Source of the DNA: an uncultured Gammaproteobacteria bacterium
Lineage (GTDB): Bacteria > Patescibacteriota > Patescibacteriia > Magasanikbacterales > GWA2-37-8
DNA length: 64,000 nt
Assembly (NCBI GenBank): GCA_964511375.1
Contig: CAZEEW010000001.1
Coordinates: 70,512-134,511, forward strand
Direction: 5' to 3'
This document shows positions 30,934-56,084 of this stretch, in pieces (the first letter of the stretch is position 1; each line of letters begins with the position of its first letter). Under the pieces are notes generated by a model. That model worked only from the letters and a program-made list of their open reading frames with translations. It did not search any database and was not told the DNA's origin. Both the position numbers and the translations under genes were made by a program.

Positions 30934-30942
30934 TGGTATACT
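30934..30942 (+). promoter_or_regulatory. Extended -10 element TGGTATACT driving island 1
   Basis: Same TGGTATA(A/C)T form as host promoters at 11952 and 40757(-). It ends 9 nt before the ATG at 30952. Confidence 0.4.
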
Positions 30943-30951
30943 CTAAGTGAG

Positions 30952-31285
30952 ATGCTGGCTCGGAGAGGAGGTGAGCGATGAGCCAGTTCAAGCGAGGTCT
31001 ACCACCCGACCTCAAAGCAATGGGTGGCCAGGTTTTCTGCCGGGAGCGGTTTGGTACAATCGTCGGTTACTCAACCGACGCCGCTCGAGGCAGACGGACT
31101 CTTCTTGTTCTCCAGGTCGTTCCTGGGTTCGGGGCGCAGGTGCTCCGGATTTCGGAGAATGACCACGATCTCTCGCGTGTGAGACTGGCGACGGCTTCGC
31201 CATGCTAGCCCCACGCGATAAGAAGGAGGCCTCGTGGCCTGCCTGATTCTCTTTGGCGCCGTTAAACACCTCGCGGCGCCCCTTC
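30952..31285 (+). other. GC-rich island 1 (foreign-composition cassette)
   Basis: Abrupt AT-to-GC switch at ATGCTGGCTCG. Contains an SD, a 76-aa ORF and G/C hairpins at 31227-31240 and 31255-31280. Confidence 0.8.
30978..31208 (+). CDS. Hypothetical 76-aa protein (island 1)
   Basis: A strong SD (GGAGAGGAGG) lies 6 nt upstream of the ATG. No family recognised. Confidence 0.55.
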   Translation: MSQFKRGLPPDLKAMGGQVFCRERFGTIVGYSTDAARGRRTLLVLQVVPGFGAQVLRISENDHDLSRVRLATASPC

Positions 31286-31288
31286 ATT

Positions 31289-31325
31289 AAAAAAAATAAT
31301 TAGCCGCCCTGATTTAAGAGCGGCT
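31289..31325 (-). terminator. Intrinsic terminator of the DNPH1-like gene
   Basis: On the minus strand: AGCCGC-N12-GCGGCT followed by a T-run (aattatttttttt). Confidence 0.7.
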
Positions 31326-31736
31326 ATTGTTAAATATTTGTTCAATCAGAACGGGTAAATTGTCTGGCGTGGCGTAAGTGAAAATCTCTACTTCCGTATT
31401 GCCCTTAATCATAGCGGATAATTTGTAGGTGTCCTTGCCTTGGTAAAGACAGACAACTCGTTTTTTTTCGTTCAAAGCCTGAGCTATTTCATATCCTACA
31501 CCCAAGCTTGGTGTGGTTACTTCAGCAATTACAACATTACTATTTAAAATGTTTTTCATTTCTCTGTCATGAATTTCCTCTTTACTTAGGTCGGTTTCCC
31601 CGTATACAGTAATATTTTCGTCAGCGACCTGAGCAGATAAAACTCGGCCGTATTTTTGTAGTTCCCCAACTATTGTTGCATATATTGGCAACATGGCCCG
31701 TCCGCCCCGTATCGAACCAGTAAAGAAGATGTTCAT
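31314..31736 (-). CDS. 2'-deoxynucleoside 5'-phosphate N-hydrolase (DNPH1/Rcl-like; nucleoside 2-deoxyribosyltransferase fold)
   Basis: FTGSIRGGR, VVIAEVTTPSLGVGYEIAQA and LSAMIKG match the recalled DNPH1 motifs FCGSIRGGR, VVVAEVTQPSLGVGYELG and LSAMIRG. Confidence 0.8.
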   Translation of the reverse strand: MNIFFTGSIRGGRAMLPIYATIVGELQKYGRVLSAQVADENITVYGETDLSKEEIHDREMKNILNSNVVIAEVTTPSLGVGYEIAQALNEKKRVVCLYQGKDTYKLSAMIKGNTEVEIFTYATPDNLPVLIEQIFNNSRS

Positions 31737-31747
31737 AAAACTTAATG

Positions 31748-32539
31748 TTAATATCTTGGCGTATTGCTTAATTCCCAGATAAATTGAAATAAATTAGATT
31801 GCATTGTAATCAGGTTTTGATCTTCCAGTAAGAGTATGATGGGTTCGCGTCCATCGTGAGTAACGTAAAGCATTTTGGAATTATAAAGGTAAATGTCTTG
31901 GGTGGCAATCTTAAGGTTGTTTGGCCCGAGACGATGCCAAGTATAGTCATTAAGCGGTTGCTTTCTTATCCATTCCAAACTAGCAGTGCTATTTTCCACT
32001 AAAATATTGAGCGGCAGACGCTTATTAAGCCTTCTGACTTCAAAATCTTCTTGCACTTCTAAGCCGGGAATTTTTGGCGTACCAATATGTTTGTAATAAT
32101 AAATTATCTTAGGGTTAGAGCGCAAGATGTCTTCTAAGGCTGATTGGTAACCATGAATACCTTGAAAGATCGATGTGTCCGGTCGTTTAGACGAAAGACG
32201 GTAAGCAGCTTTTAGTTCAGGAATAATCTCCTGGATAGTTAGAGTGGTGTTTTTGAATTCCTGCCCGCGTTTGTCTAGCAATTCATATAACCGGTCGGGG
32301 TTTTCCACAATATATTCTGTTCGCCAACCCGCCTTTTCTCGTGTAACAAGGCCGGCTTCTTGTAAATTGTTTAGAACATAATACAATATGGTACGCGGGA
32401 AAGGTGTGCGTACTTGTAGTTCTTGTACTGTGCTTTTGGGATGCGTCAATAATAAAGAGTAAAGCAGGGACTCATTCTCCCCCAGCCCTAAATTCCGCAG
32501 GGCCTCTACCACCCGACTTTTTGTTTGTTTTTTAGCCAT
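31748..32539 (-). CDS. TrmB-family transcriptional regulator (second copy)
   Basis: N-terminal winged HTH (ESLLYSLLLTHPKSTVQELQVRTPFPRTILYYVLNNLQEAGLV). Architecture is paralogous to 10939..11676. Confidence 0.7.
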   Translation of the reverse strand: MAKKQTKSRVVEALRNLGLGENESLLYSLLLTHPKSTVQELQVRTPFPRTILYYVLNNLQEAGLVTREKAGWRTEYIVENPDRLYELLDKRGQEFKNTTLTIQEIIPELKAAYRLSSKRPDTSIFQGIHGYQSALEDILRSNPKIIYYYKHIGTPKIPGLEVQEDFEVRRLNKRLPLNILVENSTASLEWIRKQPLNDYTWHRLGPNNLKIATQDIYLYNSKMLYVTHDGREPIILLLEDQNLITMQSNLFQFIWELSNTPRY

Positions 32540-32822
32540 ATGCGCTAGAATAACAGCTTTTTAATTATTTGTCAAATACATATTTACAATCTCATGCCTG
32601 GACTATTGCTAGGTATCCAAAAGTCTGCTATTATAAACGATCATCTTCAAAAAAAGAAGATGTTCAAATAATATTTACAAGCTCCTTAAAATTCGCAAAA
32701 AAGGCAAATTCAATCTGGCGAACCAACATTTTCTTTTAATTTTAGAAAAAAATGCTGGCTCGCCAGAAGGTCGTTCCTCACGGTGGGGGATGACTGGAAG
32801 GTAAGTTGGAAAGGAAAAAGAG

Positions 32823-33986
32823 ATGGAGTCGGTCCGTCTCTTGTCCTGGAGCTTCGTTCACGTGCTCCAGATGATTCTCAACCTCGCCCGGCGCGGCGGG
32901 GTCGACTTCTCCAACCCCGGTCTCCTCCGTGAGGCCCTGAACATCCGGGCCTGGGAGGCCCTCGACGAGTTGGGGCGCGACCCCAAACACTTGTGGCGGC
33001 TTACGCCGCCCCTGCACCAGGTTTACTCTCGGGCCCTGGCTTACGGAGCTGGGGACAGGTGTAGCCATAATCAGGTCTACATGGCAGCCGAACAAGCCAC
33101 CAGTCTCGCCGAGGTAGCACTCGGTGAGGTGGGGTACAGTTGGCTGTCGCGGCGTCAGGTTGCTGCTCAGCTGATCTACGCACTGGCGAATGAGATCCAG
33201 GGCGATCCGCACGCCCTGGACGCAGCCGAGCGTCAGTCCCGCTCCGAGGCCTTCCTCCGGGAGTTCTACGGGTGCGGGTGGGACGACCCCGACCCCGAGC
33301 TCCAGAAGGAAGTTGAGTACTACGAGCGCCAGCTCGGGGTGCTCTACTGCCTCAGGGCGATCGCGGTGCTCACCGAGCATCCCGAGCTCGACCTCGTCGA
33401 GCTGACCCGCCAGGGCCTCATGAAGTACGGGGTCGTGGACACCCGGGGCCGCCGGGTGTGCTACTGGTGCTCCGGTGCCCCCTGCGTCTGCGGTGGGCGG
33501 AAGGGCGGGATGAAGGCCCGCCGGCCGGAGATCACCTCCGACCTCGTCTGGGCCCGGGGACTGCCGGAGATGGACCAGCACATGGTCGTCTACGGCGTGT
33601 CTCGGAACTCGGCCATCAACGCCCTCGCGGGTGTGGTTCGCTCCCTGTCGGAGGACGGTGGGGAGTACGGATGGATCAACCTCATGTCCCGCTGTGGCGG
33701 GACGAACCGGGGAATCCAAGAGAGGCTCGGCTGCCTCTACCTCGGCAGCAGCCGGCACCCCCGCATGGCGGCCAAGAAGTTCGACGCCGAGGGCGTGCCT
33801 CTCATCGAGGGGCTCTACTCGGAGGCGGCGGACGCCGTCGTCTCCTGGCCCTGCCTCGTGACACAGGCCTTCGGTCTGCAGTTCACAAGGTCGGTCTTAC
33901 TCGGTCTCCAGCACATGGCCGATGGCGCCGGGGTCACGCTCGAGACCCCAGACGATCTGACCCGGACCATCCCGGTCCGCGAGTAG
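32823..33986 (+). CDS. Hypothetical 387-aa protein with Cys cluster CYWCSGAPCVC (island 2)
   Basis: Longest ORF of the island and G/C-dominated third positions in this frame. The other long ORFs here are off-frame or antisense shadows. No family recognised. Confidence 0.7.
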   Translation: MESVRLLSWSFVHVLQMILNLARRGGVDFSNPGLLREALNIRAWEALDELGRDPKHLWRLTPPLHQVYSRALAYGAGDRCSHNQVYMAAEQATSLAEVALGEVGYSWLSRRQVAAQLIYALANEIQGDPHALDAAERQSRSEAFLREFYGCGWDDPDPELQKEVEYYERQLGVLYCLRAIAVLTEHPELDLVELTRQGLMKYGVVDTRGRRVCYWCSGAPCVCGGRKGGMKARRPEITSDLVWARGLPEMDQHMVVYGVSRNSAINALAGVVRSLSEDGGEYGWINLMSRCGGTNRGIQERLGCLYLGSSRHPRMAAKKFDAEGVPLIEGLYSEAADAVVSWPCLVTQAFGLQFTRSVLLGLQHMADGAGVTLETPDDLTRTIPVRE

Positions 33987-34187
33987 TCGCCTCGCCGGCT
34001 GTCCTTCGGGGCGGTCGGTGGGCATGGTTTAGAGGTGGGGCGTTTCTCTTAGGGGAGACGCTTGCGCCTCCCCTATCCCAGTATTTCTTAATTCAAGGAA
34101 TGTTGAGATAGGAGGCTCGTAGACCGACGTGTTTTCGTTGGGCGCTCGGTTGAGCGCACGGCGAAACACCAAACAGAGGGAGGACAA

Positions 34188-34547
34188 ATGGTCCACAAGG
34201 ATCTCAGAATCGAGCTGGTGCTCGGCGGCGTCACTTTTATCATCGTTGGCTTCCTCGAGGCAGGCGAGGAAGTGATCACCGGTGATGAAATGAAGCGTCG
34301 GCTGGCGGCCCGCTCCTTGCGGCTCATCCACGGGGCGGATTTCGAGCACTTCTCTCGCTACCGCGAGGATTTGCCGAAAGAACTCCGACCTCACCTACTG
34401 GCCACAGACCAGTGTGCTCCAGAGTGCCAGAAAGAGACGACCGTCTTCGAGTTCTTCGAAGATGTGGAAGTGTGGCACTCGTTCTGGCACAACCTTTGCG
34501 GCCCGACATGGGGCCACAACGTCTTGGCGGTGTGCTGTTGTGTGTAG
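34188..34547 (+). CDS. Hypothetical 119-aa protein ending in CCCV (island 2)
   Basis: Strong SD AGAGGGAGGACAA-ATG and GC-rich codons. No family recognised. Confidence 0.6.
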   Translation: MVHKDLRIELVLGGVTFIIVGFLEAGEEVITGDEMKRRLAARSLRLIHGADFEHFSRYREDLPKELRPHLLATDQCAPECQKETTVFEFFEDVEVWHSFWHNLCGPTWGHNVLAVCCCV

Positions 34548-34555
34548 GAGGGAGC

Positions 34556-34585
34556 GGTGCCGGCGGGGGACCCCCCGCCGGCACC
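34556..34585 (+). terminator. G/C hairpin closing island 2
   Basis: GGTGCCGGCGGGGG-a-CCCCCGCCGGCACC. The T-run begins only 9 nt later, so this is not a canonical intrinsic terminator. Confidence 0.55.
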
Positions 34586-34691
34586 CGTAGTCCCTTTTAA
34601 TTTAAATCACTAGCGTTGTTTTATTATAACTTACCTCTTGATGTACTAAATAATTATTTGTGATATACTTCATTTATTCTAATTCTTAATT

Positions 34692-35315
34692 ATGACCCCC
34701 AACAAAATACAGGAGATCATCACGTTTTTAAATCGTGCTAATGAGCTAAAAGCTGTACCACGGTTCAGTGCTTCTTTAAAAGAAGGTGGAGATACAGTTG
34801 CCGAGCATTCTTGGCGACTAGCTCTCATGACATTTATCATCGCCCAAGAATGTAATTTAGATATCAATCTTGAGAAGGCTTTAGTTTTTTCGCTTTTGCA
34901 CGACTTGGCTGAAGCCAAAACCGGAGATATCGACGGGTATTTGGTCGCCACTCAAAAAGTATCTCTGAAAGATAAAGAAGCGGCTGAAGAAAATGCCATG
35001 CATGAAATGACCGATGATCTTTCCTTTGGTGAATGGATTTACCATATTTGGGAGGAATATGAAAAACAAGAGATAATTGAAGCTAAATTGGTTAAAGCTC
35101 TCGATAAAATTGAAGCCTACTTGCATATTATGGATACAGGCGTAGAGGCTTATATACCAACAGAGTTTCATGCCGACTATGCAGATAAAGCTGTGGCTGC
35201 TTTCGACGCCGCTACTTCTCATTTCCCCGAGCTTAAGGACTTATTAGAAGCTGTAAAAATCGCTTTAAGGGAAAAACTTGAGGCCCGAGGAGTTAGTTGG
35301 GAGAGCAAAGTCTAA
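34692..35315 (+). CDS. HD-domain phosphohydrolase (YfbR-like 5'-deoxynucleotidase)
   Basis: HSWRLALM ... LLHDLAEAKTGDI, the HD motif pattern of the YfbR family. Confidence 0.8.
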   Translation: MTPNKIQEIITFLNRANELKAVPRFSASLKEGGDTVAEHSWRLALMTFIIAQECNLDINLEKALVFSLLHDLAEAKTGDIDGYLVATQKVSLKDKEAAEENAMHEMTDDLSFGEWIYHIWEEYEKQEIIEAKLVKALDKIEAYLHIMDTGVEAYIPTEFHADYADKAVAAFDAATSHFPELKDLLEAVKIALREKLEARGVSWESKV

Positions 35316-35325
35316 ATATAATTTT

Positions 35326-35901
35326 ATGGCAAATTCGGAAATAGAAATCAAAGTTAATATTGAAAACATGGATAATTTAACAAAGTTTTTAGAAGAAAAT
35401 GCCATGTTTAAATTGTCCACCCGTCAGATTGATGAATACTTTAATGCCCCAGATAGAGATTTTTTGGCTATCCGTCCGGTTACTGAATGGTTGCGTCTTC
35501 GGCAGACCAGAGAGGCGGTTCTGATAACTTACAAAAAGGCGCACTATACTACGGAGGGGAAGCTGAATTTCCGTGACGAGTTTGAAACTATAGTTGGTGA
35601 CATCGATCAAGCCAGAAAAATTCTTTTGTCTCTTGGTTATACTCCATTGGTTACAGTTAACAAAGTTCGCAAAATCTGGCGTTACCAGGAGTATGAAGTA
35701 GCCCTAGATGAAGTACAGGGATTAGGGATATTTGTAGAAATTGAGTATAAAGGTGAAGACCCAAGCAACCCAAAGTTAATCACTGACCAAATGATTGAGT
35801 TTTTACGGAAAGTTGATTGTGGAGAGATCAAACGGCACCACTCTGGTTACCCTTACATTATGCTTCTTCCTAGTGAGGCGCGTTACGATGTTATAACATA
35901 A
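35326..35901 (+). CDS. CYTH-domain protein (class IV adenylate cyclase/triphosphate tunnel enzyme)
   Basis: N-terminal EIEIKVNI (ExExK) motif and about 190 aa. The ATG at 35326 is preferred over the TTG at 35278, which overlaps the upstream gene. Confidence 0.8.
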   Translation: MANSEIEIKVNIENMDNLTKFLEENAMFKLSTRQIDEYFNAPDRDFLAIRPVTEWLRLRQTREAVLITYKKAHYTTEGKLNFRDEFETIVGDIDQARKILLSLGYTPLVTVNKVRKIWRYQEYEVALDEVQGLGIFVEIEYKGEDPSNPKLITDQMIEFLRKVDCGEIKRHHSGYPYIMLLPSEARYDVIT

Positions 35902-35913
35902 GTTTAGTAAACA

Positions 35914-35938
35914 AAATCCCGGCTATTAGCCGGGATTT
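35914..35938. terminator. Bidirectional terminator between CYTH and SOD genes
   Basis: AAATCCCGGCT-att-AGCCGGGATTT, flanked by A- and T-runs. Confidence 0.85.
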
Positions 35939-35942
35939 AAGT

Positions 35943-36524
35943 TTAAAATAACTTTAGTACTTTCCACCAGTTTTCTATATAATCTTGCCTTCGGTTTTGG
36001 TATTTTAGGTAATAGGCATGTTCCCAGAGGTCGAGTCCTATAATGGGTGTGTGGCCAAGGGAAAGAGGTGAATCCTGATTAGGCAAAGAATACATTTTTA
36101 ATTTGTCATTTTCGTCACGCACCAACCAACTCCAACCGCTGCCGAAATGAGCAAGAGAAAGTTTGTTAAACTCTTCCTTAAAATTGTCCAAAGAACCCCA
36201 AGTCTCTTCAATTTTTTTAACTAACATTTCGTCAGTTTGCTTTTCTGGCCCCATGATGAGCCAATACAGGTTGTGATTAACAAACCCACCGCCATTATTT
36301 CTTATCTTCACTCGATCTCCCTCATCGACAGAAACATTTTTAATATCTGTGAGTATTTCTTCCGCCGTTTTTTCTGTTAGTTCTGAATATTTATTAACAA
36401 GTTCTTGGAAATTATCTAAATACTTTTGATGGTGCTTGGTATAATGTACCTCCATAGTTTTAGCATCAATGTACGGCTCAAGCGCATTATAACTATATGG
36501 TAATAGTACTAAAGAGTGTTGCAT
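35943..36524 (-). CDS. sodA: Fe/Mn superoxide dismutase
   Basis: HYTKHHQKYL and DLWEHAYYLKYQNRR signatures. The metal specificity is not determinable here. Confidence 0.92.
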   Translation of the reverse strand: MQHSLVLLPYSYNALEPYIDAKTMEVHYTKHHQKYLDNFQELVNKYSELTEKTAEEILTDIKNVSVDEGDRVKIRNNGGGFVNHNLYWLIMGPEKQTDEMLVKKIEETWGSLDNFKEEFNKLSLAHFGSGWSWLVRDENDKLKMYSLPNQDSPLSLGHTPIIGLDLWEHAYYLKYQNRRQDYIENWWKVLKLF

Positions 36525-36611
36525 AAATGTATTCTTAGTAAATTTTAAATAGTATACATATTTAGTATGAATCTATCATAATGCAAAAGTGAAGCGAAGT
36601 CAAATATGTTT

Positions 36612-36645
36612 GTCATAAAGAAAACCCACGCTCTTAGCGTGGGTT
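36612..36645 (-). terminator. Intrinsic terminator after recA
   Basis: AACCCACGC-N6-GCGTGGGTT followed on the minus strand by TTTTCTTT. Confidence 0.85.
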
Positions 36646-36650
36646 AAAGT

Positions 36651-37739
36651 CTATTCTTCAGGAGGTAAGGGTACTTCTTCGTCGGTTGGTTCACCTGGGT
36701 TTCCTTCCTCTTCCTCTGGCGCCTCACCTCGTTCAACCACTTCCCATACCTTATCTCTGATTTCGTTTAATAGTTTTGGGTTATCCTTTAAATATTTTTT
36801 AGCAGTCTCGCGGCCAACACCTAATTTTTCTTCGCGGTAGTTATATGAATTTCCTTTTTTGTCTATTACTTTGTAAGTAACAGCGGTGTCTAATAAATCG
36901 CCCGACAATGAAATACCTTCATTGTACATGATATCAAATTCTGTTGTGCGGAATGGGGGCGCTACTTTGTTCTTTACTACTTTAATTTTTACGCGATTAC
37001 CAATTACTTTGTCACCCTGTTTAATCTGAGCAGCCCGGCGGATTTCAATGCGGATAGACGAATAGAATTTTAAAGCTACACCACCAGTTGTAGTTTCTGG
37101 GTTGCCAAAATATACGCCGATCTTCATACGAGTCTGGTTAATGAAGATCAAGACGGTTTTGGACTTACTAATAATCGCAGTCAGTTTACGGAGAGCCTGA
37201 CTCATGAGGCGAGCCTGTAAACCCATCTGCGCCTCGCCCATTTCTCCTTCAATTTCCGCCTTTGGCACCAGGGCCGCAACGGAGTCCACAACTACAACGT
37301 CAACAGCATTAGAGCGCACCAAAGTTTCTACGATTTCTAATGCCTGTTCACCGGTATCTGGCTGAGAAATTAAAAGTTCGTCAACCTTAATACCAATTTT
37401 ACGTGCATAATCTGGGTCAAAAGCGTGTTCGGCATCGACAAAAGCCGCAATGCCACCACGTTTTTGCACTTCCGCTACAACGTGCTGTGCTAAAGTTGTT
37501 TTACCACTAGCTTCTGGTCCATACACTTCAATAATACGACCACGTGGTACGCCTTTAACGCCAAGTGCTATGTCCAGGGACATGCAGCCAGTAGGTATTG
37601 ATTCTACCTGCATTGAAGCCTTGGCTTCGCCAAAAGTCATAATTGCCCCATCACCAAAGCGGCTCTTGATCTGCTCGATCGCGCTTTCGGCTGCTTTCAG
37701 CTTGTTCTTTACCTCCTCGTTAACTGATCCTTTAGCCAT
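36651..37739 (-). CDS. recA: Recombinase RecA
   Basis: Walker [12 protein letters not shown] and full-length RecA similarity, with an acidic C-terminal tail. Confidence 0.97.
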
Positions 37740-37764
37740 ACTAGAATAAAATTAAATACTTTTA

Positions 37765-38469: not shown

Positions 38470-38472
38470 AAT

Positions 38473-40737: not shown

Positions 40738-40756
40738 AATTATTTTTGTTACGAAT

Positions 40757-40765
40757 ATTATACCA
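40757..40765 (-). promoter_or_regulatory. Extended -10 TGGTATAAT for ftsK
   Basis: Reverse complement of attatacca, about 20 nt upstream of the ATG at 40737. Confidence 0.45.
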
Positions 40766-40853
40766 CAGAGGAGAAAAGCGAACAAATAACGTGGGGCTTG
40801 GTCTTGCTAAAACAAGCGAACTCAGGTATACTGACTGGTCAGGAATATGGAAT

Positions 40854-41833: not shown

Positions 41834-41834
41834 T

Positions 41835-47678: not shown

Positions 47679-47703
47679 CGGCCTTAATTCACCTTAAATA
47701 GTC

Positions 47704-50700
47704 ATGAAAAATATGTCACGCGATTCACTCCATTCAATTGACTTCGATGCCATTCGTCTTAGGCTGGCCTCTCCTGACATTATCCGCAATTGGTCATACG
47801 GTGAAGTAAACAAACCAGAAACCATTAACTACCGCACCCAGAAACCTGAGAAGGGTGGTTTGTTTGCCGAAGAAATTTTTGGTCCGACCAAAGACTGGGA
47901 ATGTTATTGTGGAAAGTATAAAAAGATTAGATATAAAGGTATTGTCTGCGACAAGTGTGGTGTAGAAGTTACTCACTCCTTAGTTCGCCGAGAACGCATG
48001 GGTCACATCGAACTGGCTGCTCCAGTCTCCCACATTTGGTTCTTACGTTCAGTCCCATCCAAAGTTGGTTTGGTTTTAGACCTTTCGGCTCAGGCTTTGG
48101 AAAAAGTTATTTACTTCGCTTCATTTGTAATAACTCAAGTCGATGAAGAAGGTAAGAAATTAGCTTCTGATCAATTACGTCAAGAATATAAGTCCAAACG
48201 CAAACAGATCGAACGTGAATTAGAACAAGCCATTCAAAAGTTGAATGATGAAAAAGCTGGGAAATCTGCTTTGGACAACGCCCAACAAGAAGCTGAGCGC
48301 AAATTAAAATCTCTAGAAAATGATTTCCAACAAGCTGACAAGGAACTAAAGGAAATCCAAGTGATGAAGATTGTTTCCGAAAATCGTTACCAGGAACTTT
48401 CTTTGCGCTATGGTCATTTATTTGAAGCTTCAATTGGTGCCGAAGCCGTCCGCAACTTACTCGAGCGCATTGATCTTGAAGAAACTATTAAACGTCTAAC
48501 TGAGGAACAACAAACTGCAAAAGGTGCAAAACGTGAAAGAATCATCCGCCGTAAGAAACTACTTAAGAGTTTGTTCATGACTGGTATCCGCCCAGAATGG
48601 ATGATCATGTTAAATATCCCGGTTATCCCACCAGACTTACGTCCAATGGTTGCTCTTGATGGTGGTCGTTTTGCAACCAGTGACTTAAATGATTTGTATC
48701 GTCGTGTTATTAACCGCAACAATCGTTTACGTCGTTTGAATGAATTGGATGCTCCGGAAGTTATCTGTCGCAACGAGAAAAGAATGCTGCAAGAAGCGGT
48801 TGATGCTTTGATCGACAATAGTGCTCGCCACTCAAAGACCGTCACTGCTTCCACTGGTCAAAAGAGACAATTGCGTTCTTTGGCCGACATCTTAAAAGGT
48901 AAACAAGGTCGTTTCCGCCAGAATCTTTTAGGTAAACGTGTTGATTATTCTGGTCGTTCGGTAATCGTCGTTGGCCCAACCCTAAATATTGATGAATGTG
49001 GTTTGCCAAAACGCATGGCTCTCGAATTATTCAAGCCATTCATTATTAGTGAGATTATTAAACGTGAATTAGCTCACAACGTTCGTAGTGCTAGCCGCTT
49101 TATTGAATCGGAGCGTGATGAGGTTTGGGATATTTTGGAAGAATTAACCAAAACCACTCGCGTGCTTTTGAACCGTGCGCCAACCCTACACCGCTTAGGT
49201 ATCCAGGCTTTCCACCCTCGTTTAATCGAAGGTAAAGCTATCCAATTACATCCCTTGGTTTGTACGGCTTTCAACGCTGACTTCGACGGTGACCAGATGG
49301 CTGTACATTTGCCTTTGACTTTAGAAGCCCGCGCTGAAGCCGATAATCTTATGGCTGCAGAAAAGAATCTTTTGAAGCCAGCGACTGGCCAACCAGTTAT
49401 TACTCCTAAGCAAGACATTGCACTTGGTTGTTTCTACCTGACTCACCACAAGACCGATGATACGGCTGAAGTTAAGAAGTTCTTCTATTCACCAAAGGAA
49501 GCCTTGCTTGCTTACAAGAGCCGCGTTGTTACTTTGCACGAACGCATTAAAGTTCGTATTTCTGAAGGTTTAGAACGACACGGCAAGAGCGAACCATTCT
49601 TGCTTGAGACTTCCATGGGTCGTCTTATCTTCAACGAAGTTGTTCCCGAAGGCTTACCATATTACAACGAAACAATTAACGTTAAAAAATTAGCCATGAT
49701 CATCCGGCTTTCTCTTGAAATGAATGGCCAAGAACGTACCGCTCATTTCTTGGATGATTTAAAGAACATGGGCTATAAGTATGTCACCAAGTCTGGTTAC
49801 TCACTTGGTATGAACAACTTCCCACGTATTGATGAAAAGCCAGCGATCTTAAAAGAAAGCGATGCTCGTGTACAAGAAGTAGAAGAACAATTCCAAGAAG
49901 GTTTGTTAACTCAAGCTGAACGTCGTGCCAAGATTTTAGAAATCTGGACTGAAGCTAAAGAAAAGATTTTGGCCAATAACCAAGCAACCTTGGATAAAAA
50001 CGGTCCAGTATTCGCCATGATTGATTCTGGTGCTCGTGGTACTTGGGGTCAGCTTGGTCAGGTTATTGGTATGAAAGGTTTGGTGGTGTCTCCTTCCGGC
50101 GATATTATCGAGCTTCCGGTTAAAGGTAACTTTAAAGAAGGTTTCGATGTACTTGAATTCTTCATCTCCTCCCACGGTACTCGTAAGGGTTTGTCCGATA
50201 CCGCTTTACGTACTGCTAACGCTGGTTACTTAACCCGTCGTTTAGTAGATGTTTCTCAAGATGTCGTAGTCTTAGAAGACGATTGTGGTGATGATATCGG
50301 TGAAACCTTTACTGAAGCTCAGTCTAAAGAAATGGGTGAGAAATTGGCTGACCGTGTCTGGGGTCGTTATGTCTTAGCGGATGTTAAGACAAACGATGGT
50401 AAGGTCATTGTTAAGGCCGGTGAAGCCATTGATGACAAAGCGGCTCGCGAAATTGAAAAGAGCGGTGTTACCTCAGTGCATGTTCGTAGCGTCTTACAAT
50501 GTCATTTGCCAAAAGGTGTTTGCCGCAAGTGTTATGGCTTTGATCTCGCCCACAACGCTCCAGCTAACATTGGTGTGGCCGTTGGTGTAATCGCTGCTCA
50601 GTCTATCGGTGAACCGGGTACTCAGCTTACACTTCGCACCTTCCACACTGGTGGTGTCATGGGTGGAGATATTACCCAAGGTTTGCCCCGCGTAGAAGAA

Positions 50701-51591
50701 CTATTTGAATGTCGTGCACCAAAGCACCAAGCTGTCTTGGCTGAAGTTGAAGGAACTGTCGAAATTGATGATGCTGACGGTAAGGTTATTACTTCCGCCT
50801 CTGGCAAGAAGATCTTTGAAGGCCGCCGTGGTCAAAAAATCATCCGCATTAAGTTTGAGGGTATGGAAGAAATGAAACTCAAATTTACTGAGGAAGACGA
50901 AGTGGAAGTAAAAGATGGTGATACAGTAAATAAAGATCAGGTTCTCATGGTTCGTGGTGGATCTGGTGAAGAAATTAAAGCTAAATACGGTGGTACTGTT
51001 AAAGTTAACAAGAACACTATTATTTTAACCTACGAAGGTCCAAAGGTTCGTGAATACATCGTCCCATTGGGTTACAAAGTCACTGTTCAAGACGGACAAA
51101 AGGTAGAAAAAGGTGACCGCCTAACTGATGGTAGTATTAACCTCCAAGACCTCTTTGATCTTAAGGGTCGCCCAGCGGTGCAAAGATACGTTTTGGAAGA
51201 AGTACAAAACATCTACTCTTCTCAAGGCCAGAAGGTTAATGATAAGCACGTAGAAATCATTATCCGCCAGATGTTTAGCCGTGTCTATGTTGAAGATGCT
51301 GGTGACACAGATTTATTACCAGGTGAAGTAGTAGAGAAAGCCCAGTTAGAGATTTCTAACCGTATGGCTAAGAAAGACGGCGGTAAGACTGCTACCTGCC
51401 GCGAACTCTTACTCGGTGTTTCTCGTGTTGCTCTTTCCACCCAGAGTTTCTTGTCTTCTGCTTCCTTCCAGGAAACAGCGAAAGTTCTTATTAACACCGC
51501 TATCACTGGTAAGATTGACTATCTTGAAGGTCTTAAAGAAAATGTTATTATCGGTCGTCTTATCCCAGCTGGTACTGGTTTCAAAGGTTAA
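47704..51591 (+). CDS. rpoC: RNA polymerase beta' subunit
   Basis: Zinc finger CYCGKYKKIRYKGIVCDKCG, catalytic NADFDGDQM, and full-length similarity. Confidence 0.98.
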   Translation: MKNMSRDSLHSIDFDAIRLRLASPDIIRNWSYGEVNKPETINYRTQKPEKGGLFAEEIFGPTKDWECYCGKYKKIRYKGIVCDKCGVEVTHSLVRRERMGHIELAAPVSHIWFLRSVPSKVGLVLDLSAQALEKVIYFASFVITQVDEEGKKLASDQLRQEYKSKRKQIERELEQAIQKLNDEKAGKSALDNAQQEAERKLKSLENDFQQADKELKEIQVMKIVSENRYQELSLRYGHLFEASIGAEAVRNLLERIDLEETIKRLTEEQQTAKGAKRERIIRRKKLLKSLFMTGIRPEWMIMLNIPVIPPDLRPMVALDGGRFATSDLNDLYRRVINRNNRLRRLNELDAPEVICRNEKRMLQEAVDALIDNSARHSKTVTASTGQKRQLRSLADILKGKQGRFRQNLLGKRVDYSGRSVIVVGPTLNIDECGLPKRMALELFKPFIISEIIKRELAHNVRSASRFIESERDEVWDILEELTKTTRVLLNRAPTLHRLGIQAFHPRLIEGKAIQLHPLVCTAFNADFDGDQMAVHLPLTLEARAEADNLMAAEKNLLKPATGQPVITPKQDIALGCFYLTHHKTDDTAEVKKFFYSPKEALLAYKSRVVTLHERIKVRISEGLERHGKSEPFLLETSMGRLIFNEVVPEGLPYYNETINVKKLAMIIRLSLEMNGQERTAHFLDDLKNMGYKYVTKSGYSLGMNNFPRIDEKPAILKESDARVQEVEEQFQEGLLTQAERRAKILEIWTEAKEKILANNQATLDKNGPVFAMIDSGARGTWGQLGQVIGMKGLVVSPSGDIIELPVKGNFKEGFDVLEFFISSHGTRKGLSDTALRTANAGYLTRRLVDVSQDVVVLEDDCGDDIGETFTEAQSKEMGEKLADRVWGRYVLADVKTNDGKVIVKAGEAIDDKAAREIEKSGVTSVHVRSVLQCHLPKGVCRKCYGFDLAHNAPANIGVAVGVIAAQSIGEPGTQLTLRTFHTGGVMGGDITQGLPRVEELFECRAPKHQAVLAEVEGTVEIDDADGKVITSASGKKIFEGRRGQKIIRIKFEGMEEMKLKFTEEDEVEVKDGDTVNKDQVLMVRGGSGEEIKAKYGGTVKVNKNTIILTYEGPKVREYIVPLGYKVTVQDGQKVEKGDRLTDGSINLQDLFDLKGRPAVQRYVLEEVQNIYSSQGQKVNDKHVEIIIRQMFSRVYVEDAGDTDLLPGEVVEKAQLEISNRMAKKDGGKTATCRELLLGVSRVALSTQSFLSSASFQETAKVLINTAITGKIDYLEGLKENVIIGRLIPAGTGFKG

Positions 51592-51602
51592 TAAAATATT
51601 TA

Positions 51603-51632
51603 AAGAGCCCCATAACTGGGGCTCTTGTTTTT
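51603..51632 (+). terminator. Intrinsic terminator after rpoC
   Basis: AAGAGCCCC-ataact-GGGGCTCTT followed by gTTTTT. Confidence 0.9.
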
Positions 51633-51659
51633 GGCTAAAATTTGAGATAGAATAACAAT

Positions 51660-51694
51660 ATAAAACAAAAATCCTACACTTTAAAGTATAGGAT
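51660..51694 (-). terminator. AT-rich intrinsic terminator downstream of the island 3 gene
   Basis: On the minus strand: ATCCTATAC-tttaaa-GTGTAGGAT followed by TTTTTGTTTT. Confidence 0.6.
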
Positions 51695-51751
51695 CTTATG
51701 TATTCCATTTAGCTTCTCTGTAGTCTTTAGCTAACAAGTGTTTGCTAGTTA

Positions 51752-52066
51752 AGGGCCGGGACAGAGAAGCTGTCCGCGGGTTAAAGAGTATGGGAACAGC
51801 TAGGTGGTTCGTCGATCACCGCCTTCGCTGTAGAACAGCGAGGGTAGCGATTGAGAAGAACACACCTCCCACAACCGTCACGCGCTTAGGTTCGCGCGCA
51901 AGATCGTGGAACAAGCCGTCCCCGGTAAGGTCACCGCTCGCGCAGGCCAGGAGTCCGCAGATGATGCTTGCGAACACGGCTCCAGCCACGAGAGCGAGGA
52001 CTAGCCGAACGATCGCTTGATCACACTGCTGGGTCATTTGACCCCTCCATGCCCCCGCAGGGGCAA
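51752..52066 (-). other. GC-rich island 3 (foreign-composition cassette)
   Basis: Abrupt composition switch on both sides. Hairpin GCCCC-tgcg-GGGGC lies upstream of the SD, and GGACAG-N5-CTGTCC lies downstream of the stop. Confidence 0.8.
51816..52037 (-). CDS. Hypothetical 73-aa two-TM membrane protein (island 3)
   Basis: SD GGAGGGGTCAA-ATG at the internal Met of the 91-aa ORF. Two hydrophobic helices (IVRLVLALVAGAVFASIICGLLA; VTVVGGVFFSIATLAVL). Confidence 0.6.
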   Translation of the reverse strand: MTQQCDQAIVRLVLALVAGAVFASIICGLLACASGDLTGDGLFHDLAREPKRVTVVGGVFFSIATLAVLQRRR

Positions 52067-52081
52067 GTTGGAATAGACAAG

Positions 52082-52110
52082 ATTTAATCACGAAAATGAG
52101 TTATAGTCAA
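52082..52110 (-). promoter_or_regulatory. TTGACT-N17-TTAAAT promoter-like element reading into island 3
   Basis: Counted on the minus strand. Lies in the AT-rich gap shared with the divergent gene at 52121. Confidence 0.4.
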
Positions 52111-52120
52111 TCACATTTTT

Positions 52121-53986
52121 ATGTATAACCGCACCAAAATTATAGTCGTAACTTCCCTAATTTTAGCTATATTTGCAGGAATTCTAGGATATTTTTATGG
52201 GCCAAAAATATCCACAGATGGCAGCGTTTTTAACAGTACTGTTGAGGCTCAAAATGATAATCCCAACACCTCAACACCGGTCGTAGGTAAAAACCATAAT
52301 CCCTATGTAAACGATTCTCGTTTGTATGATGAATTTTTTGACTACGCCAAAAAGCCTAATGCCATTAGTGATAAAATTGTCTCTGGTGTTATCCCACATC
52401 ATCTTGTCGCTGGTCACTATGTAGCTGGATTTTTCGATTCTGTACAGAACACCGATCCTGAAGTAGTAGTATTGGTTGGGCCTAATCATGGGCAGCGTGG
52501 CAATGACAATTTTGTATCCAGCTACTTAAATTGGAACACACCATATGGTGAATTAAAGACAGATGCTAAATTGGTTGGTAAATTGGAAAAAGAAGGACTG
52601 GTTAAGATTAAGCCGGAAATAATGGAGGGAGAACATAGTATTAGTTCGCTCGTACCGTTTATCAGAAAAAACTGGAAAAACACTAAAATAGTGCCAGTCA
52701 TTGTTAAAAACAACGCCACAACTTCAGAATTAGATCGATTGGTGGAGTGGATTAAAAATGAAGTAGGAGATAAGGGATTGCTTTTAACTAGTGTAGACTT
52801 TTCACACTACCTGCAAAAAGATTCGGCAGATTTTCATGATGAGTTGTCCTTAGCAGTTTTAAGATCAGGCGACTTATCTCGGGTTCGTAAGTTGGAAGTA
52901 GATAGCCCTAATAGTTTGTACTTATTACTGAAGTACAATGAACAAATGGGTGCGAAAAAGTTTGAATTTTTTTCTCATACTAATAGTGCGGACATTTTAG
53001 AAAATCCGTCCTTGCTGGAAACCACTTCTCACGTCATTGCCGGATTTAATAGAGGTGAAGCGGCAGATAAGGCTATTACAATGCAATTTTTTGGCGACAT
53101 GATGCTAGAACGCAATGTTGCTAAGGTCATGGGCGTAAAAGGACTAGATTATCTTTTTGACAAATTAAAGGCCCAAGAAAACCGCTTCTTCTATGGCATG
53201 GACTTATTAGTTGCCAACCTCGAAGGTCCGTTTGCGCCAAGTAGAGTCCCCACCACTAAGTCCATCGCTTTTCGTTTTGATCCAAAACTCGCTTCGCAAT
53301 TGTCTAAGTATGGTTTCAGCGGATTCAATATCGCCAACAACCATACCGTGGATATGGGCTGGGCGAATGTGGATTACACCAAAAAGATTTTAAAACAAAA
53401 TAATTTAAAATATTTTGGTGATCAATTACGTGAAGGGAAAGAGTATTCTTGGATTGCGGGAGAAGAAATGGGCTTACCAGAAAAAGTTGCTTTTATCGGT
53501 GTTAATAACACCGACCACGCCTTGAAGATGGCAAAGGTTAGAGAAGCGATTGAGGAAGCAAAAAAGCAGGCTAGATACATAGTTGTTAACGTCCATTGGG
53601 GAGTAGAATACCAGCGAAACTCCAGAAAGGCTGAACAAGATTTAGCGCATTGGTTTGTGGACCAAGGAGTCGATGCGGTGATTGGTCATCATCCCCATGT
53701 GATTCAAGAAATGGAAGTGTATAAAGGTGCACCAATTTTTTATTCACTTGGCAATTTCATCTTTGACCAATATTTTTCAACGGAAACACAAGAAGGTATA
53801 AGCGTTGGATTAACTTTTAGCGACGGTAAGGTGAACGACGTGTATGTCTTCCCTTTCTACGGCACGAAATCCCAGGTTCAGTTAATGACCGGTAGTCGTA
53901 AAACAAAGTTTTTTGACTGGTGGAATAAAAATAGTCGGTTGGGAGGAGAGAAATTTGAAAATGGTAAAATAACTTTAAGTGAATAA
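52121..53986 (+). CDS. Fusion protein: Memo-like (AmmeMemoRadiSam system protein B) N-domain plus CapA/PGA_cap metallophosphatase C-domain
   Basis: N-terminal TM helix. GVIPHHLVAGHY, VLVGPNHG and DFSHY are Memo-like; ANNHTVDMG, HWGVEY and GHHPHVIQE...YSLGNFIFDQ are CapA-like. Confidence 0.8.
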   Translation: MYNRTKIIVVTSLILAIFAGILGYFYGPKISTDGSVFNSTVEAQNDNPNTSTPVVGKNHNPYVNDSRLYDEFFDYAKKPNAISDKIVSGVIPHHLVAGHYVAGFFDSVQNTDPEVVVLVGPNHGQRGNDNFVSSYLNWNTPYGELKTDAKLVGKLEKEGLVKIKPEIMEGEHSISSLVPFIRKNWKNTKIVPVIVKNNATTSELDRLVEWIKNEVGDKGLLLTSVDFSHYLQKDSADFHDELSLAVLRSGDLSRVRKLEVDSPNSLYLLLKYNEQMGAKKFEFFSHTNSADILENPSLLETTSHVIAGFNRGEAADKAITMQFFGDMMLERNVAKVMGVKGLDYLFDKLKAQENRFFYGMDLLVANLEGPFAPSRVPTTKSIAFRFDPKLASQLSKYGFSGFNIANNHTVDMGWANVDYTKKILKQNNLKYFGDQLREGKEYSWIAGEEMGLPEKVAFIGVNNTDHALKMAKVREAIEEAKKQARYIVVNVHWGVEYQRNSRKAEQDLAHWFVDQGVDAVIGHHPHVIQEMEVYKGAPIFYSLGNFIFDQYFSTETQEGISVGLTFSDGKVNDVYVFPFYGTKSQVQLMTGSRKTKFFDWWNKNSRLGGEKFENGKITLSE

Positions 53987-54000
53987 CTATTAAGTTTTGT

Positions 54001-54729
54001 ATGTCAGGACATTCCAAATGGCACAATATTCAAGGACGGAAAGGTAAACAAGATGCGAAGCGTAGCAACCTATTTACTAAATTTGCTAAAGGCATTACGG
54101 TCGCGGCCCAATCTGGTGGAGGAGACCCTGAAATGAATTTCTCTTTACGCATTGCAATTGAAAAGGCTAAGGCTGTCGGTATGCCCAAAGATAATATCGA
54201 GCGGGCTATCAAACGCGGCACTGGTGAATTAAATGATGGCGTAAAAGTAGAAACAGTAATATATGAGGGATATGGACCGGGCGGTGTGGCCATACTTCTA
54301 AAAGCTTTAACTGACAATAAGAATCGAACTGTTTCAGATGTTAAACATTTGCTTTCTGAACATGGTGGCTCAATGGCTGGGCCGGGAAGCGTACTTTGGA
54401 TGTTTGAGCAGTGGGGATTAATTACTATCAGCAGATCCAGCATTACCAAAAGTCGTGATGAATTTGAATTAGAGTTAATCGAAGCTGGGGCTGAGGATAT
54501 TGCCGACGTGGAGGAAGATAAAGTTGAAATTAAAACCAAAGTAGAAAATTTACAAAAAGTTTTAGCTGCTCTTAAGACCTCTGGTATTGAACCAGAACAA
54601 TCCGGATTAGTGTGGTTGGCTAAAGACGAAGTAGATGTGACACCAGAGAATGCCGAGAAGCTGGCCGATCTCTTCGCCGAACTAGAAGACAATGATGATA
54701 TCGAAGATTATTACACCAACGCTAAATAG
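54001..54729 (+). CDS. yebC: YebC/PmpR-family transcriptional regulator
   Basis: N-terminus MSGHSKWHNIQGRKGKQDAKR and full-length family similarity. Confidence 0.9.
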   Translation: MSGHSKWHNIQGRKGKQDAKRSNLFTKFAKGITVAAQSGGGDPEMNFSLRIAIEKAKAVGMPKDNIERAIKRGTGELNDGVKVETVIYEGYGPGGVAILLKALTDNKNRTVSDVKHLLSEHGGSMAGPGSVLWMFEQWGLITISRSSITKSRDEFELELIEAGAEDIADVEEDKVEIKTKVENLQKVLAALKTSGIEPEQSGLVWLAKDEVDVTPENAEKLADLFAELEDNDDIEDYYTNAK

Positions 54730-54730
54730 C

Positions 54731-55255
54731 ATGAAAGCACTACTCGAAAAAAAGACAAGAATAATTGGTATTGACCCCGGTTTTGGTCGGGTTGGTTATG
54801 GCGTAATAGAGAAGGTAGGGAGGAGAGATTGGCAAGTAGTGGATTATGGTTGCATTGAAACCGCTAAGGGGAAAAAGTTTGTCGATCGCTTAACAGAAAT
54901 ATTTGACGAGCTAAATGTTTTAGTTAAAAAATACAAACCAGAAAGAATGGCGGTTGAAAAGCTATTCTTTTTTCGTAATGTAACAACCGCAATTGAAGTC
55001 GGGCAGGCCCGAGGGGTAATATTACTTACCGCTGTTCAGAATGGACTGGAGGTAGACGAATTTACGCCGCTTCAGGTAAAGCAAGCCATTACTGGCTACG
55101 GTAAAGCAGAGAAGCCGCAGATGCAGAAAATGGTAGCTATGATATTAGGTATCAAGGAAAAAATAAAATCCGATGATGCGGCCGACGCCCTGGCGATTGC
55201 TTTGTGTGCCGGACAGAGTCTGTGGATGAATAAACTAAAAGGAGTAAAACCGTGA
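54731..55255 (+). CDS. ruvC: Holliday junction resolvase RuvC
   Basis: IIGIDPGFGRVGYGVIE and a C-terminal DAADALAIALC. The ATG at 54731 directly follows the yebC stop. Confidence 0.9.
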   Translation: MKALLEKKTRIIGIDPGFGRVGYGVIEKVGRRDWQVVDYGCIETAKGKKFVDRLTEIFDELNVLVKKYKPERMAVEKLFFFRNVTTAIEVGQARGVILLTAVQNGLEVDEFTPLQVKQAITGYGKAEKPQMQKMVAMILGIKEKIKSDDAADALAIALCAGQSLWMNKLKGVKP

Positions 55256-55262
55256 AGCACGG

Positions 55263-55291
55263 TTGACAATTTGTCTAATTTTAGCTAAAAT
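55263..55291 (+). promoter_or_regulatory. Sigma70-type promoter TTGACA-N17-TAAAAT upstream of island 4
   Basis: Consensus -35 and 17-nt spacer counted by hand, about 60 nt before the GC switch. Confidence 0.55.
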
Positions 55292-55349
55292 CACATTCAT
55301 ACATTGGACGTGATTTGTTTTTTAATAGCGAAAATTGCTGTTAAAAAAC

Positions 55350-55988
55350 ATGTCTCGTCCAGGGCGGACGGGAGTAAACCCGCAACGGGAGAGTTCAGAT
55401 GAAGAGCCTGGTGTCGTGTTTCGTGCTGGTCGCCCTGTTCCTCAACCTGTTCGGCTGCATCGAAGCGGCCGAGTTCAACCACTCCGACGCGACGACCGTG
55501 TCGGAGGACGTGGCTAGCGTCCAAGACGTCTCCTTGCCAGAGGAGAACGACATCGCCATCAAGATTCCCCGGGCGGAGTGCCCGGAGGCAACAGCCGGAC
55601 CATACACGGTCCGAGTTGTGATCGACGCCACGACCTGGGTCAGGATCTCGTCCGAGGTAGAGCGTGTCTTCCTCAGCCGGGAGCTCGATGCAGATCGGAT
55701 GGACACGGCCGAAATTCGCGTCGAGTCCGCCGGGTGCGATTTCCAGTTCGCCATCAGCAACAACTCCACGGAGGTCGCGCACGTCTCTGTGGAAGCCCCG
55801 ACAGGGGTTTCCATCACCATCCGGTACGCCCGTGGCGGATCCGAGACCGTTCCCGCGAACGGTTTCAAGCAGGCGATCGTCTACACGGTCGGTAATGTGA
55901 AGTACTACTTCCATTACCAGCCGCCGGGCTGAGCACCAAGGGCGGCAAGTCGCCGCCCGCGAGGCTGCCGCATCGTACTGGCCCTCGT
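55350..55988 (+). other. GC-rich island 4 (foreign-composition cassette)
   Basis: The composition switch falls exactly at an ATG (55350). Contains a lipoprotein ORF, with hairpin GGGCGGC-N5-GCCGCCC (55940-55958) after the stop. Confidence 0.8.
55399..55932 (+). CDS. Hypothetical lipoprotein, 177 aa (island 4)
   Basis: Signal peptide with lipobox LFGC, very high G/C at third positions, and SD-like GGGAGAG 7 nt upstream. Confidence 0.7.
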   Translation: MKSLVSCFVLVALFLNLFGCIEAAEFNHSDATTVSEDVASVQDVSLPEENDIAIKIPRAECPEATAGPYTVRVVIDATTWVRISSEVERVFLSRELDADRMDTAEIRVESAGCDFQFAISNNSTEVAHVSVEAPTGVSITIRYARGGSETVPANGFKQAIVYTVGNVKYYFHYQPPG

Positions 55989-56052
55989 ATTCATTATTAA
56001 TCCTTTGGGGTTGGTAATGAGTACTTACTTCCAGTACGCTTGCGAATAAAAA

Positions 56053-56084
56053 TAAAGGACTTCCCAATCGGGGAGTCCTTTTGA
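56053..56084 (+). terminator. Intrinsic terminator after island 4
   Basis: AAAGGACT(T)CCC-aatcg-GGGAGTCCTTT followed by TTTTGACTTTT. Confidence 0.7.

Follow-up and report, generated by a model that had tools for sequence, protein, structure and literature searches.

What keeps four short stretches of DNA far richer in G+C than everything around them is the question raised by a 64,000-nt segment (hereafter the window) of contig CAZEEW010000001.1, assembly GCA_964511375.1, from a Magasanikbacteria-like lineage of Patescibacteria. The original prediction, made from the letters alone, took these stretches to be small genes captured repeatedly from a high-GC donor or host. On the basis of related genomes and of predicted messenger folding we favour a different reading, to which we give roughly even odds (a probability of about 0.5): the islands would be slot-resident, fast-evolving genes whose high G+C is maintained by selection for folded transcripts.

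The window averages 41.7% G+C, and 150-nt windows above 55% merge into four stretches, namely island 1 (30931-31327, 57% G+C), island 2 (32747-34649, 63%), island 3 (51735-52097, 57%) and island 4 (55327-56047, 59%); nothing in the rest of the window comes near them in length or height of G+C. The abrupt rise that had been described is therefore real, and it runs from about 41% to 57-63%. Island 1 carries a 76-aa open reading frame (ORF), island 2 a 387-aa ORF (X387) with a 119-aa partner, island 3 a 74-aa ORF and island 4 a 177-aa lipoprotein ORF, and for none of the five was a significant family found in Pfam, NCBIfam, PHROGs or PADLOC. The edges are sharp, within about 50 nt, and G+C at third codon positions (GC3; GC1 and GC2 for the first and second) stands near 0.8 beside 0.37. 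Host GC3, taken over 50 host ORFs in the window, is 0.371 (standard deviation 0.029, maximum 0.44), and the clear island ORFs reach 0.74-0.86, which is the atypical composition and codon usage expected of recent genomic islands. Third positions dominated by G or C had been claimed for the island ORFs generally; this holds for the 387-aa, 119-aa and 177-aa ORFs, and the 76-aa ORF is ambiguous.

Start sites set the islands apart as well. A motif resembling a Shine-Dalgarno (SD) site lies upstream of only 2 of the 50 host ORFs, as against a strong SD in four of the five island ORFs, so that both the GGAGG-type sites quoted earlier, which are present as written, and the description of the host as SD-poor proved correct. 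Host-style promoters near three islands were confirmed, one of them by a consensus scan and the other two by reading the sequence, and the two quoted terminators were recovered by scan at 56054-56081 (+) and 51697-51668 (-). As to mobility genes, their reported absence holds beside the slots: neither an integrase nor a transposase adjoins a slot among the genes inspected, although not every window ORF was scanned, and the island 3′ hairpins showed no repeated attC-like element by eye, with no systematic IntI scan of the window. Two Logan assemblies from other sequencing runs, SRR5011273 (window 29823-34476 at 100% identity) and SRR6488411 (32417-36986 at 99.98% identity), span both junctions of islands 1 and 2. 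Because these independent assemblies reproduce the junctions, islands 1 and 2 are not assembly chimeras.

Persistence of the high G+C and folding of the messages

The islands were compared with related genomes, named below by locus labels such as L022, which are few and partly fragmentary. The closest relatives were reached through the Memo-CapA protein, at 75-77% identity. Colinear orthologues of the island 4 lipoprotein occur in L022, L025 and L026 at 36-38% amino acid identity, with the lipobox kept. Between the window and L022 or L025, five flanking genes have a synonymous divergence (dS) of 1.5-2.7 or undefined, a third-position identity of 44-57% and a GC3 of.35-.44. Over the same divergence the lipoprotein has kept a GC3 of.77-.83 in the window, L022 and L025, without the amelioration that an import would undergo. 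High GC3 despite saturated flanks argues that the G+C is maintained and is not the fading trace of an import. By our own estimate from a simple two-state relaxation model, a divergence of no less than 0.75 synonymous substitutions per site in each lineage should have removed most of an imported G+C excess, and the data do not fit an import undergoing neutral decay. Between L022 and L025 the lipoprotein dS is.17 (ratio of nonsynonymous to synonymous divergence, dN/dS,.45), compared with.42-.86 for the five flanking genes, a low value that fits constrained synonymous sites. The excess extends beyond third codon positions to untranslated regions (UTRs), leaders and the inter-ORF spacer (.54-.84), and since it covers the transcription unit, translational codon selection alone is insufficient to explain it.

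Nor do the relatives show the pattern of sites lacking the islands that recent insertion predicts. GC-rich genes stand at the syntenic sites in L022, L025, L026, L027, L002, L003, L006, L016, L018 and L019; the proposed search for empty sites turned up one, at slot 2 of the distant L020. The same genes at ordinary host G+C, which the original prediction had named as a result that would refute it, are represented by a single family member, in L001; in the other relatives the genes are GC-rich as well. Searches of 5.8 billion proteins and 1.84 billion representatives gave no homologue outside Patescibacteria-type contexts; for X387, tblastn against GenBank phages and PLSDB plasmids gave no match, and pattern scans built on the family alignment gave no confirmed relative in JGI metagenome contigs or IMG/VR. 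The donor-lineage homologue by which a recent genomic island can be traced was thus not found. On these sequence comparisons, at least three of the four islands give no support to an origin in a high-GC donor or host.

Predicted folding of the island messages was compared with two null models, a synonymous-codon shuffle and a dinucleotide shuffle. Under the former, seven ORF segments from the window's islands gave z-scores of -1.7 to -6.8 (mean -2.9), as against a mean of -0.36 for 18 host ORFs in the window (Mann-Whitney p =.0009; p =.0006 when all island ORFs including those of relatives are taken). Nine GC-rich island ORFs from related genomes averaged -2.3, and the lipoprotein orthologues, in which the excess is thus conserved, scored -4.8 and -4.1. 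In 20 core genes from Patescibacteria of 52-62% G+C the mean is -0.58. The dinucleotide shuffle gave -6.84 for the lipoprotein ORF (-6.8 under both null models), -6.07 for the first 780 nt of X387 and -3.95 for the island 1 transcript, next to -0.24 for the host gene RuvC. The leaders of islands 2 and 4 start with a hairpin of about 55 nt, and hairpins of leaders and 3′ UTRs carry compensatory changes. Because neither composition nor codon usage predicts folding anywhere near as strong as that of these messages, we infer selection on the transcript, which would hold the G+C up.

The slots and their occupants

In slot 4, between RuvC and SpoU, promoter, leader hairpins, SD, ORF, 3′ UTR and terminator are colinear between the window and L022 and L025. 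On the plus strand of the window, a TTGACA-N17-TAAAAT promoter (55263-55291, 11 of 12 consensus matches, conserved in L022 and L025) is followed by a conserved 5′-proximal leader hairpin with 25-nt arms and compensatory changes (55305-55361), the 177-aa lipoprotein ORF (55399-55932, GC3.79-.82) and a conserved structured 3′ UTR that includes the intrinsic terminator (55933-56081) and in which five pairs have changed on both sides. The protein begins with MKSLVSCFVLVALFLNLFGC, a signal peptide with the lipobox LFGC that agrees with the pattern [LVI]-x-[GAS]-C, and L022 and L025 have LTLTGC and FFLTGC. In the relatives the orthologue is a 183-aa sense ORF (GC1/GC2/GC3.59/.41/.77) with the same C-terminal motifs. 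Public gene calls take an antisense ORF instead, in the window (55300-56067, -; P0009, 256 aa) as in L022 (13283-13879, -) and L025 (8077-8736, -), and it is for this reason that a search of 5.8 billion proteins with the lipoprotein returned no match. The lipoprotein is accordingly no ORFan, as had been supposed, its orthologues having been masked by these calls. The slot looks vertically inherited and colinear. Two further observations concern its surroundings. The part of the 3′ UTR at 55975-56050 is far better conserved than the ORF and folds into a long hairpin in which several of the pairs are G-U; this suggests an element at the RNA level on the plus strand, and an rve-family transposase lies at the contig end of L025 (12003-12860), about 3 kb from slot 4 and adjoining no island.

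Slots 1 and 2 share a host frame of a nucleoside 2-deoxyribosyltransferase (NDT, 31314-31736, -) and a TrmB-like regulator (31748-32539, -), both named from Pfam, and slot 2 is closed by an HD-domain YfbR-like 5′-deoxynucleotidase (HD, 34692-35315, +). In island 2, a promoter-like site TTCAAA-N18-TAAAAT (32663-32692, +; 9 of 12 consensus matches) precedes a leader hairpin with 26-nt arms (32714-32767, +), of which two pairs are changed on both sides relative to L027. The right arm of this hairpin is ATGCTGGCTCG, which had been taken as the start of the island; the TrmB-X intergenic region and leader are about 80% identical between the window and L027 up to the ATG. X387 itself (32823-33986, +; GC1/GC2/GC3.68/.46/.86) is predicted to be all-alpha with a cysteine cluster, CYWCSGxPCVCGGRKGG. 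Its homologues form five clusters at 42-69% identity, and a profile search of the 1.84 billion representatives recovered only 20 family members. The strong conservation of the family, with 82 invariant columns and both the cysteine motif and VSWPCLVTQAFG, shows that the gene is real. Behind AGAGGGAGGACAA follows the 119-aa partner ORF (34188-34547, +), which has a coding pattern (GC1/GC2/GC3.63/.38/.74) and one hydrophobic segment; exact look-up gave a one-member cluster, no search of a large protein database having been made with it, and tblastn found no match in the fetched loci. The unit ends in a G/C-only terminator hairpin with a T-rich tail (34556-34586, +), and its 3′ UTR has a G+C of.84.

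The model of X387 has the all-alpha fold of a known superfamily: it resembles dimeric all-alpha dUTPases and MazG-like NTP pyrophosphohydrolases (PDB 5myd, 1w2y, 2yay), at about 9% identity and with an inserted cysteine-rich segment (residues 212-234) that is modelled at low confidence. In sequence searches, 1 of 11 members reached MazG (E =.005) and none reached a Pfam cut-off for MazG or dUTPase_2, a profile search of the PDB gave only chance matches, and a search of viral folds in BFVD gave nothing meaningful. The superfamily is marked by metal-binding acidic motifs (E-x2-E ... E-x2-D); in the X387 family the residues D157, E159, E163, E168, E334 and D337 are invariant and may belong to a putative active site. 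A role as a nucleotide-cleaning pyrophosphatase is suggested by the NDT and YfbR-like HD neighbours and by dUTPase-like genes in the same slot elsewhere. A candidate nucleotide pyrophosphatase of the dimeric-dUTPase/MazG type, whose membership by sequence is not established, is therefore a reasonable lead.

The order NDT-TrmB-[slot]-HD was found at 12 GTDB and 20 JGI loci whose labels read Patescibacteria, Magasanikbacteria or Uhrbacteria, and L002, L003 and L006 have NDT, TrmB, X, (small ORF) and HD in the order of the window. The X387 family occurs in at least 8 genomes, and its genes lie between HD and TrmB in the window, L002, L003, L006, L016, L018, L019 and L027, those of L016 (E = 1e-101), L018 (1.5e-37) and L019 (7.5e-34) having been recovered beside HD with an extended profile. 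Across genomes the slot holds a member of subfamily X-A, X-B or X-C, a Dut-like gene, or nothing. The trimeric dUTPase-like genes of L015 (9255-9815, -) and L042 (7028-7567, -) have a GC3 of.95 and.81 against.49 and.29 in their flanks, so that the compositional anomaly follows the slot and not one protein family. In 14 genomes the difference between slot gene and flank GC3 ranges from -0.01 to +0.53, exceeding 0.1 in 11 and 0.3 in 6, and the G+C of the slot genes (.51-.70) is nearly independent of that of their hosts (.36-.51).

Occupants of slot 2 have probably been replaced as whole genes among Patescibacteria, since near-identical flanks carry very different family members. L002 and L018 are 84% identical in flanking DNA (NDT 88% and TrmB 90% at the amino acid level), and their X genes are only 22% identical, that of L002 grouping with the window (69%) and that of L018 with L019 (42%). 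Nucleotide homology between the two ends just past the -35 box and returns about 85 nt after the stop codon. The window and L027 likewise enter different X subfamilies after the ATG despite their similar leaders, and within subfamily A the X gene tree conflicts with the flanks. Some details of these loci may be recorded here. A motif GAGCGCAGAAAGAAATTTGTGC(A/T)YTCAT lies about 80-130 nt after the X stop in L006, L018 and L019 and is not present in the window; in several relatives it is conserved, with the X terminator on one side and the HD gene on the other, and could be a regulatory element of the latter. The region of about 7700-9950 in L018 is without counterpart in L002, and a 91-nt copy of the sequence upstream of TrmB recurs after its first HD copy, an arrangement suggestive of a duplication of an [X + HD] module; in L019, too, the X gene is surrounded by two HD copies.

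Slot 3 lies between rpoC and Memo-CapA. On the minus strand, a TTGACT-N17-TTAAAT promoter (52082-52110, conserved in L025) was read in the sequence, followed by the 74-aa ORF behind GGAGGGGTCAA (51816-52040), which encodes a predicted two-helix membrane mini-protein, and by a conserved 3′ UTR (51668-51771) with an inverted repeat (51711-51721 and 51761-51771) and the terminator (51697-51668). No relatives of the 74-aa ORF were detected. Between the conserved UTRs, L025 and L026 carry a different GC3-rich membrane ORF of 114 aa that cannot be aligned with it. In L022 the corresponding slot (6114-9896) holds, instead of a small GC-rich ORF, a 1260-aa radical-SAM/aminotransferase gene, which we take to be the expected partner of the AmmeMemoRadiSam system.

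The GC-rich stretch of island 1 begins about 10 nt downstream of an extended -10-like promoter element, TGgTATACT (30932-30942, +), and the 76-aa ORF behind GGAGAGGAGGTGAGCG (30978-31208, +; GC1/GC2/GC3.66/.49/.62) has an ambiguous periodicity. At the TrmB locus the closest relative is L027 (TrmB 72%, NDT 75% identity), which has a positional orthologue with 65% amino acid identity over 34 aa, the same stop position and a G+C of.63, and alignment shows that the 3′ GC hairpin GGCGCCG...CGGCGCC (31255-31280, +) is conserved there. The ORF probably encodes a small protein, with a structured RNA as the alternative. Two colinear 11-mers are exactly identical between islands 1 and 2, namely ATGCTGGCTCG (30952-30962 and 32752-32762) and AGGTCGTTCCT (31114-31124 and 32768-32778), which sit in predicted hairpins, recur with changes in L027 and could mark a common regulator or RNA-binding site. 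ATGCTGGCTCG was considered as a recombination core and rejected, the island 2 copy being an arm of a leader hairpin that is conserved in L027.

Outside the islands, Rfam found only three tRNAs in the window at gathering thresholds and, in islands 1 and 2, nothing credible up to E = 10. These tRNAs (9873-10022 and 22517-22591) are Arg-CCT, Ala-CGC and Ala-GGC; the codons that they read all end in G or C, and the genome is therefore equipped for decoding GC-rich genes. The TrmB-like gene has a TTGACA-N17-TATTCT promoter at 32547-32575 (-) and its ATG at 32539, 7 nt past the -10 box, which suggests a leaderless mRNA and fits the near-absence of SD motifs (2 of 50) in host genes.

Explanations for the islands

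In the explanation that we favour, the islands would be single transcription units in fixed gaps between conserved operons. Each would have a promoter of the host type and a structured leader furnished with a strong SD, then one or two fast-evolving GC-rich ORFs, and at its end 3′ hairpins and a terminator. In a genome where translation otherwise begins without SD sites, the strong ones of the islands would make up for the structure of their GC-rich leaders, and the messages would probably be long-lived, slowly translated, or both. Gene replacement in the slots may proceed, as in the minimal mobile elements (MMEs) of Neisseria discussed below, through natural transformation together with homologous recombination, the latter in the conserved promoter, leader and 3′ UTR. 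Part of the cassette picture of the original prediction stands, with discrete single transcription units, fixed slots and replacement at slot 2 and possibly slot 3, and its high-GC origin is left without support for at least three islands. A more specific version, in which Patescibacteria possess a class of "armoured" transcription units with fast-evolving accessory genes for envelope proteins and nucleotide-cleaning enzymes, the whole transcript being kept by selection on RNA at a G+C and a folding remote from the genomic equilibrium while neighbouring synonymous sites become saturated, is put forward more tentatively, as something we would not yet bet on.

Among the other explanations, the most serious is that the slots are recombination hot spots subject to GC-biased gene conversion, their G+C being a by-product of frequent allele exchange among related Patescibacteria, in which repeated heteroduplex repair with a bias to G:C would enrich the exchanged tract. 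The allele swaps of slot 2, the unalignable ORFs between conserved UTRs in slot 3, the raised G+C of non-coding parts of the tract, and the lipoprotein dS between L022 and L025, which falls below that of the flanks as after recent gene flow, all agree with it. It does not predict folding 4-7 standard deviations beyond composition-matched shuffles or compensatory changes in hairpins; the boundaries are sharp (about 50 nt) and not graded, the lipoprotein slot appears to be inherited vertically, and we know of no GC3 shift of about 0.45 that has been ascribed to gene conversion in bacteria. We regard it as a possible but rather unlikely cause. Less likely again is recent, repeated and not yet ameliorated capture from an actinobacterial host, phages or another high-GC donor. 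Composition, SD sites and GC hairpins do look foreign, the 119-aa and 74-aa ORFs are without relatives, and the conflict between the X387 phylogeny and its flanks implies that horizontal movement occurs. Yet GC-rich positional orthologues or family members sit in relatives with synonymous saturation of the flanks, neither high-GC genomes nor GenBank phages or PLSDB plasmids yielded a homologue, and the sequence of promoter, leader and 3′ UTR is that of the host and is conserved. Capture, the central proposal of the original prediction, is thus largely refuted for islands 1, 2 (X387) and 4.

That the islands are structured non-coding RNA genes, which in AT-rich genomes are usually GC-rich, with ORFs arising by accident from high G+C, would account for the strong folding and the long antisense ORFs; island 1 is moreover without clear codon periodicity and has two 11-mers in common with the island 2 leader. 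The order GC3 > GC1 > GC2 in X387, the 119-aa ORF and the lipoprotein, the invariant columns of the X387 family, the retention of the lipobox and C-terminal motifs and of the frame and stop of island 1, and the lack of any Rfam match, even at E = 10 for islands 1 and 2, make it improbable. An assembly chimera or contamination, in which foreign GC-rich reads were joined into an AT-rich contig, has the abrupt compositional change in its favour and nothing further; with the junctions of islands 1 and 2 present in two assemblies from other runs and the same architecture in many independent metagenomes, we give it practically no weight. A mutational origin, through a diversity-generating retroelement or coupled to transcription, was also considered and set aside, because the islands lack strand asymmetry (GC and AT skew near 0) and the highly expressed rpoB and rpoC are not GC-rich.

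Several points weigh against selection for folded transcripts. The cause of the high G+C is something we infer, and GC-biased gene conversion driven by recombination would account just as well for the swaps and the low dS. L001 has a family member at host G+C, which means that the protein does not need a high one. Synonymous shuffles break dinucleotides across codon boundaries (the dinucleotide null agrees with them), and the covariation counts amount to effectively two lineages. The discordance between X-A and X-B may have arisen without transfer, if lineages lost different copies of old tandem paralogues. For the 119-aa and 74-aa ORFs, recent import is conceivable because neither has detectable relatives.

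Relation to known systems and significance

MMEs have conserved flanks, with differing cassettes of whole genes in between that are exchanged by homologous recombination, according to the account in PMC3082526, citing Snyder et al. As far as that account goes, the slots resemble the MMEs of Neisseria: the flanking genes are conserved, the whole genes that they enclose differ between genomes, and integrase, transposase and repeats are absent. The conserved flanks are HD and TrmB-NDT at slot 2, rpoC and Memo-CapA at slot 3, and RuvC and SpoU at slot 4. Different cassettes occur at slot 2 and at slot 3 (74-aa ORF, 114-aa ORF or radical-SAM gene), in comparisons between species, not strains. Unlike in Neisseria, species or genera are compared here, and recombination is deduced from indirect signs only, namely the breaks in homology within the promoter or leader and after the stop codon at slot 2. 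Persistently anomalous G+C and hyper-structured messages are foreign to MMEs, as is a slot 4 that looks vertically inherited. The lineage carries type IV pilus genes, and natural competence occurs in Patescibacteria.

Phage morons, attributed to Hendrix and colleagues at about 2000, are reportedly extra genes that bring a promoter and a terminator of their own and differ in composition from the genes beside them. The islands resemble them as autonomous promoter-gene-terminator units of deviant composition that encode small membrane proteins or lipoproteins. Unlike morons, they sit between core operons (with rpoC, ruvC, pilB and recA as neighbours) and in no prophage, and no match to PHROGs, to phage sequences or to viral folds links them to phages. 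With classical genomic islands of atypical G+C they have in common their unusual base composition and codon usage and the unknown functions of their genes. Acquired DNA usually has more A+T than its host and ameliorates as time passes, whereas the present islands are GC-richer than the host, keep their position and have not ameliorated even though divergence has reached saturation. Among the stability elements known from long-lived bacterial mRNAs are the 5′-terminal stem-loops of ompA and aprE and the STAB-SD of cry3A. The islands share with these the 5′-proximal hairpins, the strong SD near the 5′ end and the 3′ hairpins, and differ in that the whole coding body is GC-rich and over-folded. 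The literature that we searched on GC-rich islands in the Candidate Phyla Radiation (CPR) or Patescibacteria and on bacterial gene conversion does not describe this pattern. What is unusual is that anomalous G+C and RNA folding persist over long divergence in slots resembling accessory islets or MMEs.

Atypical G+C is routinely read as a sign of horizontal transfer; in the present lineage such an interpretation would be mistaken, since here it marks genes that have retained both slot and composition through long divergence. Public protein sets lack the true lipoprotein family, the ORF called there being the antisense one, and the HD-TrmB slot offers a candidate new family of nucleotide pyrophosphatases beside deoxynucleotide-salvage genes, which is relevant for organisms dependent on scavenging nucleotides. 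If the more tentative notion of armoured units is right, atypical G+C would signal special expression, for instance by very stable or RNase-resistant mRNA translated by way of SD sites in a genome otherwise free of them, and not foreign origin, and many such genes would be absent from protein databases through antisense ORF calls. If messages are indeed selected for folding, the islands would be a clear natural case of selection at the RNA level setting the composition of genes, and would point to an unstudied expression regime in ultra-small symbiotic bacteria.

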